This document shows positions 2,714 through 64,000 of a DNA stretch of 64,000 bases, one piece after another. Location of the stretch: positions 1,267 to 65,266 of the forward strand of contig CALBPF010000339.1 of NCBI GenBank assembly GCA_937899105.1, given 5' to 3'. This stretch comes from an uncultured Flammeovirgaceae bacterium (GTDB lineage: Bacteria; Bacteroidota; Bacteroidia; Cytophagales; Cyclobacteriaceae). Below the pieces are notes generated by a model. It was not told the DNA's origin. It saw nothing but the letters and a program-made list of their open reading frames with translations, and did no database searches. Each line of letters starts with the position of its first letter. The first letter of the stretch is position 1. The translations under genes were made by a program, and so were the position numbers.

Positions 2714-3020
2714 GGTATCCTTGTAATCTCCAGCTTTAGGAATAATCTTCAGTAATAGATCCGTGAATAGATTGGAACAAGTATGTTAAAAAAATAGAGT
2801 TGATATTGACGTTTAAATTTAATCACCTGTTTATCTAGGGTTAAAAAAATGGTTCAATGTTAACTGTTTATTAAATCGTATAAATAAACTTACATCGTCA
2901 TATCATCCTTTTGGAATTTTAGAAAATTGTTCTAATTTCAAAATTCCATTGGCTAGAAATACCACAAAATAAAAGCAATGTAACTTGCTTCAGCGTAAGC
3001 TGTGCTCAATCGGTAGACTT

Positions 3021-3548
3021 ATGTTATACTCTTCGGATAAATGGTATGTACTGCTTACCATGCCCAAAGCGGAAAAAAAAGTGAGAGACTATCTGGAACG
3101 TAAAAACCTGGAGGTATTTTTACCTTTATATAAGAGGGTAGTTCAGTGGAGCGATAGGAAAAAAAAGCTGTTTGCTCCACTTTTTCCGGGGTACATATTT
3201 GTGCGGTTAGATAATAAAAGTTTTCACAAGGTCTATGACACGCCTGGAGTTTTGAAATTTGTTACGATACAAGGAGTAAAAGACACTGTGCCCGATGACG
3301 AAATTGATACCATCAAGTTATTGATACAGGGTAAGCCTGAAATATGTGAAAGACATTTTGAACCCGGACAGGTCGTAGAGGTATTTTCAGGACCATTTCT
3401 TGGATTAAAGGGTGAGCTTATCAAATATAAAGGCAAAGACAGGGTATTGGTACACTTGAACACTGTAAATAAAAGTGCGATGTTGGAGATCCTACCTAAC
3501 CAACTTAGGAAATGTCCTGGTAAAAAGGTAAGTAAGGTAACTGCCTAG
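3021..3548 (+). CDS. NusG-paralog transcription antiterminator (UpxY / LoaP-like, NGN + KOW)
   Basis: WYVLLTMPKAEKKVRDYLERKNLEVFLPLYKRVVQWSDRKKKLFAPLFPGYIFVRLD is an NGN domain. GQVVEVFSGPFLGLKGELIKYKGKDRVLVHL is a KOW motif. The ORF-track start (TTG 2985) is probably too early; the ATG at 3021 immediately precedes the NGN domain. Confidence 0.8.
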   Translation: MLYSSDKWYVLLTMPKAEKKVRDYLERKNLEVFLPLYKRVVQWSDRKKKLFAPLFPGYIFVRLDNKSFHKVYDTPGVLKFVTIQGVKDTVPDDEIDTIKLLIQGKPEICERHFEPGQVVEVFSGPFLGLKGELIKYKGKDRVLVHLNTVNKSAMLEILPNQLRKCPGKKVSKVTA

Positions 3549-3685
3549 TTACAAATATTCATTACAATTCCAGCTTCAGAGAATCAGGGTTATAGTTGAG
3601 CTAAAGGATCTGATTAATCAACATTAGAATTCTAAAAAGTGGTAAAAGTTGCCATCGATGAGTCATAGCATACAATTGTTGAATT

Positions 3686-3964
3686 ATGAAAAAGAAAGAA
3701 ATAGTAAAAGGACTGAAAGAAATCCTTGTGGACAAATTGGATGTCAATTTAAAAATGGAGAGCATCAAAACTGATGTGCCATTATATGAGGGTGGAATAG
3801 GATTGGATTCGATTTCAATTGTTAATCTGATCGGTCTCACAGAAGAGCGGTTTAATTTCCGCTTTGAAGATGACGAGATCAGTACAGAAATATTTGGCAG
3901 CCTGGATGCACTATCTTCTTTTATTGAAAAAAAACATGCTGCCGCCCAAGTATTTAACCTTTAG
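3686..3964 (+). CDS. Stand-alone acyl/peptidyl carrier protein
   Basis: 92 aa. GGIGLDSISIVNLIGLTEERFNF has the phosphopantetheine attachment Ser in an LDS context, and the size fits a four-helix carrier protein. Confidence 0.75.
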   Translation: MKKKEIVKGLKEILVDKLDVNLKMESIKTDVPLYEGGIGLDSISIVNLIGLTEERFNFRFEDDEISTEIFGSLDALSSFIEKKHAAAQVFNL

Positions 3965-61040: not shown

Positions 61041-61048
61041 AAGTATCC

Positions 61049-61215
61049 ATGGAAGACCTCATTAACCGGTTAAGGGAAAATGATGTACATGTAGAGGTTG
61101 TAAATGACGAATTACAACTGAATGTACCCGTTGGTGCGGATTTGAATAAGCTTCTCCTTGAAGTAAAAGATAGTAAGCAGGCGTTGATCACTTATATTAA
61201 AAAAATTAGAGATAA
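61049..61215 (+). other. TubC_N-like N-terminal docking domain of NRPS-7
   Basis: MEDLINRLRENDVHVEVVNDELQLNVPVGADLNKLLLEVKDSKQALITYIKKI has the same pattern as the NRPS-4 and NRPS-5 N-termini. Confidence 0.55.
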
Positions 61216-64000
61216 TGCTGTCTTTCAGAAAATTCAACCTGCCCCAATAAAGAAATATTATCCCTTATCATCGGCGCAAAAAAGACTGTATTTTTTGTAT
61301 CGCTTAGACGAAGAATCGCGGGCTTATAATATGCCTCAGGTGATAAAACTTAAAGAAAAGCCTGATCAGGAGCGCCTAGAGGCTGTATTTACTAAATTGA
61401 TCTATCGGCATGAAAGCTTGCGTACTTCCTTTGAGGAAGTTAATGGTGTGCCTGTTCAGAAAATAGCGGAAGTAGTCGATTTCAAACTGGAGAGTTATGA
61501 ATCCTCAAAGGAAGGATGGACTTCTATTATAAGGGAGTTTATCAGGCCGTTTGATCTGAAGGCAGGCCCTTTATTACGTGCCGGTTTGATTACAGTTTTT
61601 GACCGTACTAATAAATCAGCTATCGCTGAGTATTTCCTGATCTTGGATATGCATCATATTATTGCAGATGGAGTATCTCAATCGGTACTTGTCAATGATT
61701 TCATGTCGCTTCATAAGGGTGAGGAGATACTTGATTTGCCGCTGCAATACAAGGATTATGTGGAATGGCAATTGAGTGAAAGTCAGCAAAAGCAAATTGT
61801 CAAGCAGAAATCTTTCTGGTTAAAAGAGTTTTCACAACCTACATTACCTTTAGAGTTGCCTACTGATTACAACAGACCCCGTGAAAAGAGTTTTAAAGGT
61901 AGATCTTATGAGTTCAAACTTACAAAAGAGGATGCCGTAAAATTAAGAAATATTACTGATCAGACCGGGACTACAATGTACATGGTCCTTTTTTCGGCAT
62001 ACGTGATATTGTTAAGCAAGCTTGGAAACCAGGAAGATATTGTAGTTGGGACACCAGCAGCGGGCCGTCAGCATATGGACCTGGAGGGTATCATTGGTAT
62101 GTTTGTGAATACATTGCCAGTAAGGAGTTATCCTAATGGTAACATAAGCTTTAAAGAGTTTTTGTCAGAAGTTAAAGATAACATATTAGCTTGTTTCGAA
62201 AATCAAGAATACCCATATGAGCAGTTGTTAGATGTGCTTAACTTGAAGCGACATGTCAGTCGTAACCCTTTGTTCGATATGGTTTTTTCTTATCAAAACT
62301 TCTCAAAACATGGCGACGACATAGCCGACATAGAACACATTTCCATCGAACGTGGTCAAAACATATCAAAATTTGATTTAACGATGACCGCCAGTGAGTA
62401 TGAAGACCAGATCCATTTGAATGTGGAATATTCTACTGACTTATTTAAAAGGTCTACCATTAACCGTTTTGAATTATATTTCAAAAAGATAGTGACCGCA
62501 ATAACTCTCAATCATGACATTCGGTTAAAAGATATTGATATTTTGTCTTCACGAGAGCGTTATCAGTTATTGACGACCTTTAACGACACATTAGTTGATT
62601 ATCCTAAAGACAAAACAATAATCGAGTTGTTTCATGAACAGGTAAAGAAAAACGCTGCCAAGATAGCCATTGAGTTTGACAATGAGATGATGACTTATCA
62701 AACGCTAGACCTTCTTAGCCGTAAAGTAGCTAGTTATCTACATCAAATCAATGATGTGAGACCCGAGGAATGTATCGGAGTGTTGGCAGATTGGTCCGGT
62801 GAACTCGTGGCGGTATTTCTCGGCATCTTAAAAGCTGGAGGGGCTTACCTGCCTTTGGATCCCAGGCACCCGGTAGAGAGGATTCGACAAATGGTGCAGG
62901 ACGCAGAGGTTCGCATTGTGCTTGCACCACCAAAATATCATCACCTGCTGACTGATAATATGGTAATCGTAACTCCGGAGTCCTTATTCAGAGAAAGACC
63001 TCAAAAGGAATTTCGAAATACTGCCGGCCCTGATAGTTTGGCTTATGTGATGTACACCTCGGGTTCTGCTGGGACACCGAAAGGAGTGGCAGTAACTCAT
63101 CGAAATGTTGTCCGTCTGGTAAAAAATACAAACTACATTGAGCTCAATGAGTCCACCCGGATATTGCAGACAGGAACACAGGTGTTTGATGCGGCAACAT
63201 TCGAAATATGGGGTAGTTTGTTGAATGGAGGCACATTGGTTTTGAAAGAAAAGGAAGCATTTCTTCATAGTAGGTCATTAGCCAAGGTCTTAAGTGAATC
63301 TAAGATTAACACGTTGTGGCTTACATCAGGTTTATTTAACCAACATGCTAAGGAAGTCCCCACTATGTTCTGTGGATTGCATTATTTGTTGGTAGGCGGC
63401 GATGTATTGAACCCGGTGGCAATAAATCATGTCAGAAATACTAATCCCAATTTAAAGATTCTCAATGCATATGGACCAACAGAGAATACAACTTTTTCCA
63501 CTTTTCATGTCATAGACAGGGATTATAACGATAGTATACCAATAGGCAAACCAATTAGTAATTCAAGAGCTTATGTTTTGAGTAATTATGGCCAACTACA
63601 GCCCATTGGAGTCGCCGGAGAGTTGTATGTCGGAGGCGATGGTGTAAGTAGAGGGTATATCAATCAATCAACGCTAACGGCAGAAAAGTTTGTTCCCGAT
63701 CCGTTTCATTCCGGTGGTCGTCTTTACCGTACCGGGGACCTGGCACGTTGGTCATCGGACGGCGCCTTGCAATTCCTGGGGCGCCAGGATGACCAGGTGA
63801 AGATCCGGGGTTTCAGAATAGAGTTGGGAGAGATAGAGCATAAGCTAGCTAATCACGATCAACTACGGGACGTGATTGTAATGTCCAGGGAGTTTGAGGG
63901 AGAGAAGCATCTGGCGGCCTATTATGTGTCGGAAAAACCAATAAATGCAGATGCCATTCGATCTTATTTGCAAGACAAACTCCCCGATTACATGCTTCCG
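61049..64000 (+). CDS. NRPS-7 (partial, 3' end outside window): docking-C(L-donor type)-A(Val/Ile-like)...
   Basis: Not in the supplied ORF track. Hand translation from ATG 61049 gives 984 codons with no stop up to nt 64000. MEDLINRLRENDVHVEVVNDELQLNVP (docking). YPLSSAQKRLYF, MHHIIADGVS ~61651-61680 (C). YTSGSAGTPKG ~63050-63085, NAYGPTENTTFST, YRTGD, GRQDDQVKIRGFRIELGEIE (A). Code DAFWLGATF-. Confidence 0.9.
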   Translation, partial: MEDLINRLRENDVHVEVVNDELQLNVPVGADLNKLLLEVKDSKQALITYIKKIRDNAVFQKIQPAPIKKYYPLSSAQKRLYFLYRLDEESRAYNMPQVIKLKEKPDQERLEAVFTKLIYRHESLRTSFEEVNGVPVQKIAEVVDFKLESYESSKEGWTSIIREFIRPFDLKAGPLLRAGLITVFDRTNKSAIAEYFLILDMHHIIADGVSQSVLVNDFMSLHKGEEILDLPLQYKDYVEWQLSESQQKQIVKQKSFWLKEFSQPTLPLELPTDYNRPREKSFKGRSYEFKLTKEDAVKLRNITDQTGTTMYMVLFSAYVILLSKLGNQEDIVVGTPAAGRQHMDLEGIIGMFVNTLPVRSYPNGNISFKEFLSEVKDNILACFENQEYPYEQLLDVLNLKRHVSRNPLFDMVFSYQNFSKHGDDIADIEHISIERGQNISKFDLTMTASEYEDQIHLNVEYSTDLFKRSTINRFELYFKKIVTAITLNHDIRLKDIDILSSRERYQLLTTFNDTLVDYPKDKTIIELFHEQVKKNAAKIAIEFDNEMMTYQTLDLLSRKVASYLHQINDVRPEECIGVLADWSGELVAVFLGILKAGGAYLPLDPRHPVERIRQMVQDAEVRIVLAPPKYHHLLTDNMVIVTPESLFRERPQKEFRNTAGPDSLAYVMYTSGSAGTPKGVAVTHRNVVRLVKNTNYIELNESTRILQTGTQVFDAATFEIWGSLLNGGTLVLKEKEAFLHSRSLAKVLSESKINTLWLTSGLFNQHAKEVPTMFCGLHYLLVGGDVLNPVAINHVRNTNPNLKILNAYGPTENTTFSTFHVIDRDYNDSIPIGKPISNSRAYVLSNYGQLQPIGVAGELYVGGDGVSRGYINQSTLTAEKFVPDPFHSGGRLYRTGDLARWSSDGALQFLGRQDDQVKIRGFRIELGEIEHKLANHDQLRDVIVMSREFEGEKHLAAYYVSEKPINADAIRSYLQDKLPDYMLP

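Follow-up and report, generated by a model that had tools for sequence, protein, structure and literature searches.

Gene order and predicted peptide

The window, a 64,000-nucleotide stretch of contig CALBPF010000339.1 (assembly GCA_937899105.1), contains the first ~61 kb of a nonribosomal peptide synthetase (NRPS) operon whose source is an uncultured marine member of the Bacteroidota; a gene for a UpxY-type antiterminator opens the operon. Its GC content is 36-41%. An origin in Bacteroidota is indicated by the antiterminator model, which scores above its cutoff, and by the relatives of the TauD-family and loader proteins, all of which are from Bacteroidota. Listing open reading frames (ORFs) of at least 150 aa gave 21 across the window, and from position 2985 to the right edge every one lies on the + strand. 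Gaps between genes are at most 176 bp, and at 26618 and 34075 neighbouring genes share an ATGA (gap of -4 bp). Two larger gaps are only apparent: 3548-4109 is filled by a 92-aa acyl carrier protein (ACP) ORF (3686-3964), and 18461-18954 is the 5′ part of a carbamoyltransferase gene that is split by an in-frame TAA at 18909. Eleven non-NRPS genes stand among the synthetases, predicting the ACP, a HemN-like radical-SAM enzyme, an acyl ligase, SbnA, SbnB, an ADOP permease, the carbamoyltransferase, a TauD-family enzyme, an S12 peptidase, an FkbM enzyme and AsnB.

Domain order was obtained from Pfam scans and from phmmer searches seeded by one condensation (C), one adenylation (A) and one thiolation (T) domain of the window. 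The string is FAAL-T-C-A-T-E / C-A-T-E-C / A-T-E-C-A(MOx)-T / C-A-T / C-A-T-E-C-C′-A-T-C / half-C-A-T-C-C′-A-T / C-A..., where FAAL is a fatty acyl-AMP ligase, E an epimerisation domain, MOx an inserted monooxygenase and C′ a second, degenerate C domain. The map comprises 16 C-superfamily domains (11 C, 4 E and one half-C), 10 T domains and, besides the FAAL, 10 A domains. The line is modular and collinear, with repeated C-A-T modules that have intact core motifs, and a GGxS carrier motif was found in 9 T domains. The 270 aa at the N-terminus of NRPS6 correspond to the C-terminal lobe of a C domain only. An earlier sequence-only reading of this DNA had described a large co-directional cluster with small gaps or ATGA overlaps from 2985 rightward, with ten or more elongation modules after a FAAL start; the ORF list and the domain map agree with it, and its domain string was reproduced.

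Specificity codes were extracted by alignment to GrsA-PheA, which returned its own code, DAWTIAAICK, as expected. The alignment gave DLTKIGEVGK (Asn) for A1 and A2, DFWNIGMVHK (Thr) for A3 and A7, DILQLGMIWK (Gly) for A4, DILQMGMVW(M) (Gly) for A5, DLSKIGHIGK (Asp-like) for A6, DVWHFSLVDK (Ser) for A8 and A9, and DAFWLGATF- (Val/Ile-like) for A10, all ten being identical to the codes previously extracted by hand. E domains follow modules 1, 2, 3 and 6. The C domains after them (C2, C3, C4 and C7) have a common HHILxDGW motif and 27-44% mutual identity and form one group, while C1, C5, C6, C8 and C10 are of the L-donor type. The T domains preceding E domains carry GGDSI. Motif and grouping are in accord with the D-donor assignment made for these C domains in the sequence-only reading. 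The predicted order is fatty acyl-D-Asn-D-Asn-D-Thr-Gly-Gly-D-Asp(-like)-Thr-Ser-Ser-Val/Ile-like-...

Table 1. Genes of the operon, with positions in the window and the basis of each assignment.
Predicted product	Position	Strand	Basis
UpxY-family NusG-like antiterminator, operon head	2985..3548	+	Pfam NusG; NF033644 antiterm_UpxY 139 bits, cutoff 100
Free-standing acyl/peptidyl carrier protein, 92 aa, GLDS motif	3686..3964	+	NCBIfam phosphopantetheine-binding, AmcB-like ACP
HemN/ChuW-like (class C type) radical-SAM enzyme	4109..5440	+	Pfam Radical_SAM; NCBIfam HutW/ChuW, HemW and HemN best, all below cutoff
158-aa protein with faint cupin/AraC_binding resemblance	5505..5981	+	No Pfam family; PF02311 at E=0.007 only
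Stand-alone acyl-AMP/CoA-type ligase, 472 aa	6010..7428	+	Pfam AMP-binding; best solved relative coronafacate ligase Cfl, 3e-19
NRPS1 loader: FAAL-T-C1-A1(Asn, DLTKIGEVGK)-T-E	7521..13982	+	Pfam, phmmer, code alignment
SbnA, L-2,3-diaminopropionate synthesis	14015..14995	+	TIGR03945 378 bits, above cutoff 350
SbnB, L-2,3-diaminopropionate synthesis	15031..15990	+	TIGR03944 295 bits, below cutoff 327 yet best match
ADOP/MacB-type duplicated FtsX permease, likely exporter component	16068..18461	+	Pfam MacB_PCD, FtsX; NCBIfam ADOP, DarB-like; multiple hydrophobic segments
NodU/CmcH-type carbamoyltransferase, in-frame TAA 18909-18911	18657..20648	+	Pfam Carbam_trans_N/C
NRPS2: C2(D-donor)-A2(Asn)-T-E-C3(D-donor)	20751..26621	+	Pfam, phmmer, code alignment
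NRPS3: A3(Thr)-T-E-C4-A4(Gly, MOx ~31925-32962)-T; in-frame TAG 32255-32257	26618..34078	+	Pfam, phmmer, motifs
NRPS4: TubC-type docking-C5-A5(Gly)-T; in-frame TAG 37069-37071	34075..37413	+	Pfam, phmmer, code alignment
TauD/TfdA-family Fe(II)/2-oxoglutarate dioxygenase, probable amino-acid hydroxylase	37501..38448	+	Pfam TauD
NRPS5: docking-C6-A6(Asp-like)-T-E-C7-C7′(44579-45916)-A7(Thr)-T-C8	38522..49018	+	Pfam, phmmer, code alignment
Secreted S12 (beta-lactamase-fold) serine peptidase	49195..50655	+	Pfam Beta-lactamase; hydropathy; SLGK motif
FkbM-family methyltransferase	50709..51767	+	Pfam Methyltransf_21; TIGR01444 82 bits, cutoff 38
Glutamine-dependent asparagine synthase AsnB, N-terminal MCG nucleophile	51875..53731	+	Pfam; TIGR01536 449 bits, cutoff 267
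NRPS6: half-C(53871-54680)-A8(Ser)-T-C9(56463-57800)-C9′(57828-59180)-A9(Ser)-T	53871..61040	+	Pfam, phmmer, code alignment
NRPS7, cut by window edge: docking-C10-A10(Val/Ile-like)...	61049..64000	+	Pfam, phmmer, code alignment

No thioesterase (TE) domain, MbtH motif or ORF of the size of a phosphopantetheinyl transferase was found within the window by ORF list, Pfam or motif search, as had been stated before. The line continues to the right, also as claimed: the longest version of the last gene, in GCA_050043435.1, encodes C-A-T-C over at least 1536 aa up to the end of its contig. Exact-protein look-ups and a metagenome scan with the last gene found public contigs that reach at most ~1.7 kb past the window edge. 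Seven independent public contigs (ENA, Logan and NCBI) break off within the NRPS7 gene, at ~63.8-65.7 kb on the scale of the window, which suggests a repeat that short-read assemblers cannot cross. On the left, a 311-aa protein is encoded at 710-1645 (+), with a weak helix-turn-helix match and a 'DGHNRY' stretch that recalls ParB-like nucleases, and a 265-aa DAHP-synthase-family gene lies at 1661-2458 (-). These two genes probably mark the left border of the cluster.

The loader family and the S12 peptidase

The FAAL of NRPS1 was assigned because its best solved relatives in the PDB are FAAL-type loaders (6ulw, McyG, 3pbk; FadD32). Relatives of the loader and of the S12 peptidase were each taken from the best 120 matches. 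Approximately 105 of the loader matches have the same length (~2150 aa), are 45-53% identical and are from Bacteroidota, and all of these read FAAL-T-C-A(DLTK[IV]GE[VI]GK)-T-E. Named hosts are Fulvivirga, Flavobacterium, Aquimarina, Chitinophaga, Chryseobacterium, Pedobacter, Puia, Mucilaginibacter and Spongiimicrobium, and the best homologues in cultured strains fall in the same range of identity. The unit that follows the loader varies: D-Asn in the window, C′-Thr then Gly in Chitinophaga nivalis, a Ser-Gly-polyketide synthase (PKS) hybrid in a Pedobacter, and a unit with another code in Fulvivirga imtechensis. The order in F. imtechensis AK7 is UpxY-loader-SbnA-SbnB-carbamoyltransferase (ornithine carbamoyltransferase-like)-TauD-peptidase-permease. 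In C. nivalis and Pedobacter (L066, 3990-8100; L067, 1639-5683) the loader is preceded by genes for a TonB-type outer-membrane barrel, a DUF6249 protein, an ECF sigma factor and a small partner, a set that is not in the window.

The predicted S12 peptidase has a signal peptide and an SLGK (SxxK) motif at residue 92. Its best PDB match is alkaline D-peptidase (4y7p, 9e-21), and ClbP is matched at 1.5e-11. A role as an offloading cyclase of the SurE/Ulm16 type was considered and rejected, given the signal peptide and the weak matches (6ksu 3e-7, 8fek 7e-6). Many homologues of the free peptidase carry CBM6/CBM35 modules. Pairing of peptidase and loader on one contig was judged by equal contig size, and by this measure 14 peptidase homologues among the best 120 are on a contig with a loader homologue from the corresponding 120; four of these contigs are no longer than 26.5 kb. 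Two related contigs (L068, 2310-5390; L069, 3074-6172) encode a fusion of ~1030 aa in which an S12 peptidase is joined to a multi-helix ABC membrane domain and an ABC ATPase. In both, the fusion gene adjoins an orthologue of the free peptidase of the window and an Asp/Glu racemase gene, the order in L069 being NusG, S12-ABC fusion, S12 peptidase orthologue, racemase, cupin and loader. Peptidase-ABC exporter fusion is also the architecture reported for the zwittermicin prodrug peptidase ZmaM.

Tailoring, precursor supply and strain variation

The MOx is luciferase-like and lies between core motifs A4 and A5 of the Gly-specific A4 domain, with FDxS at residue 1735 and NMYGPTE at residue 2180 of NRPS3; its Bac_luciferase matches are split by the in-frame stop. 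In MtaG (myxothiazol) and MelG (melithiazol) a monooxygenase is likewise embedded between A4 and A5, and in solanimycin SolF an in-line module with Gly and a flavin monooxygenase leads to alpha-hydroxyglycine (PMC10204066). The module of the window shares with all three the Gly code and a luciferase-like or flavin monooxygenase inside the A domain. However, the MtaG and MelG modules are terminal, and hydroxylation there leads to chain cleavage and a terminal amide, whereas the MOx-Gly module here is module 4 of at least 11, and a T domain and then NRPS4 (C-A-T) follow it in place of a terminal TE. SolF is in-line like the window module but has its insertion between A8 and A9. Given this resemblance to SolF, alpha-hydroxyglycine, possibly O-methylated, is expected at position 4. 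The MOx would alpha-hydroxylate the module-4 glycine, and the FkbM enzyme would O-methylate a hydroxyl group.

The TauD-family enzyme has 39 Bacteroidota homologues in NRPS loci (48-69% identity), most of which adjoin an orthologue of the S12 peptidase. Its best PDB match is the clavaminate-synthase-like protein At3g21360. Free-amino-acid hydroxylases of the AsnO/VioC type were not among its PDB matches, and that role was rejected. The enzyme is predicted to hydroxylate a carrier-bound residue, most likely Asp or Asn. The two C′ domains give full-length Pfam Condensation matches, with HHIMVDR in C7′ and HRIIADP in C9′ as degenerate forms of HHxxxDG, and are 33% identical to each other. The units C-C′-A(Thr) and A(Ser)-T-C9-C′-A recur in other Bacteroidota, and C′ is paired with Thr in L051, L059 and L066. 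Both may be non-condensing adaptors for a trans-acting enzyme. According to Reitz et al. in 2019, siderophore NRPS 'interface' domains partner stand-alone TauD-type Asp beta-hydroxylases. Like C7′ and C9′, such a domain is a degenerate C-superfamily member between a normal C and an A domain, in a cluster with a stand-alone TauD-family enzyme; it serves Asp (or His) modules, however, and the A domains after C7′ and C9′ read Thr and Ser.

C9, which is flanked by the two Ser modules, has the motif HHALLDGWS and is only 24-27% identical to the D-donor C domains of the window. Its PDB matches are bacitracin synthase 3 (1e-42), McyA (5e-42) and AmbE (3e-29), and a weak NCBIfam match to SolG (1e-14) was given by C9 and not by C7′ or C9′. 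C9 may be a distinct McyA/AmbE/SolG-like C type that dehydrates the neighbouring Ser to dehydroalanine.

Among the remaining genes, AsnB would supply Asn, and SbnA and SbnB would make L-2,3-diaminopropionate (Dap) for a module beyond the window. The carbamoyltransferase probably converts Dap to, or otherwise installs, a ureido group (ureido-alanine) for a module past the window edge. At the corresponding place after sbnAB, F. imtechensis (L026, 8943-9962) has an ornithine/aspartate-carbamoyltransferase-like gene where the window has the NodU/CmcH-type gene (18657-20648). This looks like a non-orthologous replacement in which the combined Dap-plus-carbamoyl function is conserved. Between the antiterminator and the loader, a sub-cassette (3686-7428) encodes the ACP, the radical-SAM enzyme, the 158-aa protein and the acyl ligase; the corresponding site in F. 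imtechensis (L026) lacks it. One possible role is synthesis of a modified acyl group carried by the free ACP.

The three in-frame stops of Table 1 are sense codons in other assemblies. The TAA in the carbamoyltransferase gene is AAA (Lys) in contig L048, and the TAG inside the MOx is TCG (Ser) in L002, where NRPS3 is intact at 2486 aa. The TAG in NRPS4 lies just after core motif A10, where the window reads ATG TAG against AAG TTG in L002 (gene intact at 1112 aa); the A10 catalytic Lys of module 5 (37066-37068) therefore reads Met in the window. A frameshift at 37071 was considered and set aside, as the site is an in-frame TAG instead. Stop-codon reassignment was likewise rejected, since other assemblies have Lys, Ser and Leu codons at the three positions and all three stop codons (TAA, TAG and TGA) end normal genes in the window. 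The stops may reflect a disabled copy or base errors in the assembly.

Comparison with L048 gave 54 synonymous and 22 non-synonymous differences, and changes private to the window in 41.8-63.7 kb are nearly all silent. As the differences are mostly synonymous, purifying selection acts on the cluster. Two of the stops are found in clusters of single-nucleotide polymorphisms (SNPs), with 6 SNPs in 68 bp and 6 in 48 bp. Such clusters lie, for example, at 32220-32287, 37039-37086, 40548-40661 and 42955-42981 (27500-48450 compared with L002, and 41859-63731 with L042-L046), and the window as a whole is a mosaic of haplotypes from other assemblies. Mosaic and SNP clusters together suggest recombination, or mixing of paralogues in repetitive NRPS DNA. 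A 16-bp intergenic insertion (TATTCATCTCATCTTT) at 50668-50683, between the peptidase and FkbM genes, was seen only in the window; it is absent in L042 and L044-L046, and BLAST placed the same single gap in L043.

The acyl-D-Asn head and comparison with known systems

The window encodes the parts of a ClbN/ClbP-type start: a first module of acyl donor-C-A(Asn)-T-E with a C domain of the D-donor type after it, and a cluster-encoded S12 peptidase with an SxxK motif and a signal peptide. A prodrug logic is suggested because the acyl-D-Asn loader is invariant while the downstream lines vary, because a D-donor C domain follows, and because exported S12 peptidases and exporters are linked to the clusters. 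In the mechanism proposed here the acyl-D-Asn head would be a pro-sequence that, after export through the ADOP permease, is removed by the S12 D-peptidase in the periplasm or outside the cell, in the manner of the colibactin, xenocoumacin and zwittermicin systems. The whole explanation, an acyl-D-Asn-started NRPS operon with the tailoring and head processing set out above, is given a probability of about 0.7. Cleavage of the head by the S12 peptidase of this very cluster, which is argued from analogy, is put just short of an even chance. The broader proposition is that the 2150-aa loader is a phylum-wide Bacteroidota pro-sequence cassette, which places a fatty-acyl-D-Asn head on unrelated NRPS or NRPS-PKS products and has it removed at export by secreted or ABC-fused S12 peptidases, combined in this operon with C′ adaptors in Thr/Ser modules and an in-line alpha-hydroxyglycine as a possible cleavage point. 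Such a strategy would resemble that of ClbN/ClbP while relying on another loader architecture and another branch of peptidases. It is offered tentatively, as rather less than an even bet. The previous description of the product as a lipopeptide agrees with the FAAL start, but may hold for the pro-form only if the head is cleaved.

Several findings weigh against this interpretation, and those on the peptidase also bear on a competing one in which the head is kept, the product is a genuine lipopeptide and the S12 enzyme, a D-stereospecific peptidase of the TriF/BogQ or alkaline D-peptidase kind, serves self-resistance or housekeeping without activating the product. The peptidase is closer to alkaline D-peptidase, its best solved relative, than to ClbP. 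It has no ClbP-type C-terminal membrane helices, with no hydrophobic segment beyond the signal peptide, and no peptidase-ABC fusion is present in the window; its identity to the peptidases fused to exporters in related clusters is only 25-27%. The enzyme might thus serve resistance or be an unrelated D-peptidase. The CBM6/CBM35 modules of many homologues are typical of extracellular secreted enzymes, at least four D-residues of the peptide are possible targets, and with D-Asn also at residue 2 the cleavage site of a prodrug would be ambiguous. Yet more than 100 clusters that differ in other respects retain the Asn code of the loader and its E domain, which is hard to explain without a shared role for acyl-D-Asn, and in relatives the loader occurs together with a fusion of peptidase and ABC exporter. 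Retention of the head is accordingly regarded as possible, with odds clearly below even. Other points against the proposed scheme concern its remaining parts. No plausible Dap code was found among the A domains of the window, which makes the use of SbnAB and the carbamoyltransferase a guess. The C′ domains precede Thr and Ser modules rather than Asp, so the 'interface' analogy is loose, and the TauD-family enzyme beside the C′-Thr module in C. nivalis is only 35% identical to that of the window. Neither the window nor the longest public contigs reach the release domain or the end of the cluster. The three stops and the A10 Lys-to-Met change, if real, would inactivate this copy.

Recent pseudogenisation, with real nonsense codons, a real A10 change and no product, would fit the sense codons AAA, TCG and TTG of other assemblies. 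The 998-aa truncated NRPS4 product is missing from the protein collection, whereas proteins encoded beside it are included, from an NCBI contig of 65,690 bp, consistent with pseudogene flags, and the closest contig, L002, has a TAA of its own at window position 41763. Loss of function is nevertheless considered less likely than not: the strain differences are those of a cluster under purifying selection, and stops in such tight SNP clusters look like local artefacts of consensus or paralogue mixing. The product might instead be a metallophore, that is, a hydroxy-Asp/Asn siderophore lipopeptide rather than an antibiotic-like compound. The TauD-family hydroxylase gene adjoins the Asp module, genes for a TonB-type barrel and for a pair of ECF sigma and anti-sigma factors flank the loader loci of C. 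nivalis and Pedobacter, and chitinopeptins with hydroxy-Asp bind iron. With one Asp-like module in ten, no receptor, reductase, hydroxamate or catechol genes in the window, and D-Asn starters with peptidases not being a siderophore feature, this is improbable. Far less probable still is a monocyclic beta-lactam of the sulfazecin or nocardicin kind, in which Dap or Ser is cyclised and a methoxy group is added by the TauD-family enzyme together with the methyltransferase. The window does encode SbnA/SbnB and both of these enzymes, a set reportedly present for sulfazecin, and there are two Ser modules with unusual C domains. Against it, no sulfotransferase occurs among the window ORFs and no terminal TE is visible, SbnAB with TauD is common in ordinary Bacteroidota NRPS clusters, and the HHH motifs are in C2 and C3, whose donors are D-Asn and not Ser.

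The acyl-D-Asn-started cluster is a new, incomplete NRPS member of a large uncharacterised Bacteroidota family. Its earlier designation as an orphan stands within the scope tested: near-identical DNA was found only in contigs from metagenomes and metagenome-assembled genomes (MAGs), cultured strains reach no more than the loader identities given above, and the lipopeptide clusters checked differ. Several marine metagenomes and MAGs have contigs that encode identical or near-identical proteins, and members of the 90% clusters are labelled 'Bacteroidota bacterium' or 'Fulvivirga sp.'. No characterised counterpart was found in the literature on Bacteroidota lipopeptides and acyl-D-Asn prodrugs, and no report of acyl-D-Asn prodrugs in Bacteroidota was found in the open-access literature. 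Aquimarins as well as chitinopeptins have architectures that differ from the window, the 'monooxygenase domain' of bosamycin is a P450 and irrelevant here, and a Pedobacter survey held no matching product family. The atypical features noted previously are present, but several (in-line MOx-Gly, C-C′-A(Thr/Ser), and SbnAB with TauD and S12 peptidase) recur in other Bacteroidota NRPS loci and are uncharacterised rather than unique.

Taken alone, the window is one more orphan MAG NRPS cluster, neither culturable nor completable from public data. The loader family provides an entry point, with an invariant Asn code in more than 100 Bacteroidota clusters, including those of cultured Fulvivirga, Chitinophaga, Flavobacterium, Aquimarina and Pedobacter, and two kinds of uncharacterised NRPS part, the C-C′-A(Thr/Ser) and the in-line MOx-Gly modules, are open to testing in these cultured hosts. 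If the prodrug proposal is true, mature products would be non-lipidated, structure prediction for all loader clusters would change, and free N-acyl-D-Asn would be a metabolomic handle for finding the products.

Among Bacteroidota NRPS clusters with lipid initiation, those for the chitinopeptins, iron-binding lipopeptides with hydroxy-Asp (PMC9248904), resemble the window in this start, in an sbnA/sbnB Dap sub-cluster, in embedded E domains and in a hydroxylated Asp, which is putative in the window. They differ in a C-starter or PKS start, a CmlA-type di-iron hydroxylase, N-Me-Val, a TE and the order of residues. TriF, BogQ and the Bacillus alkaline D-peptidase are, like the window enzyme, secreted S12 enzymes in NRPS clusters with D-rich products, but unlike it they are not tied to a conserved acyl-D-Asn loader. 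In colibactin ClbN/ClbP, xenocoumacin XcnA/XcnG and zwittermicin ZmaM (PMC9889268 in part), as in the window, the initiating module acylates and epimerises Asn, the next C domain is of the D-donor type, and the cluster includes an S12 peptidase and an exporter component; a peptidase-ABC transporter fusion is shared with clusters related to the window and not with the window itself. ClbN-type systems have a starter C domain alone, whereas the loader here is fused to its own FAAL-T. ClbP has a three-helix membrane domain, whereas the window peptidase has a signal peptide only, with neither that domain nor an ABC fusion. The window further differs from all three systems in that its host belongs to Bacteroidota and a second D-Asn follows the first.

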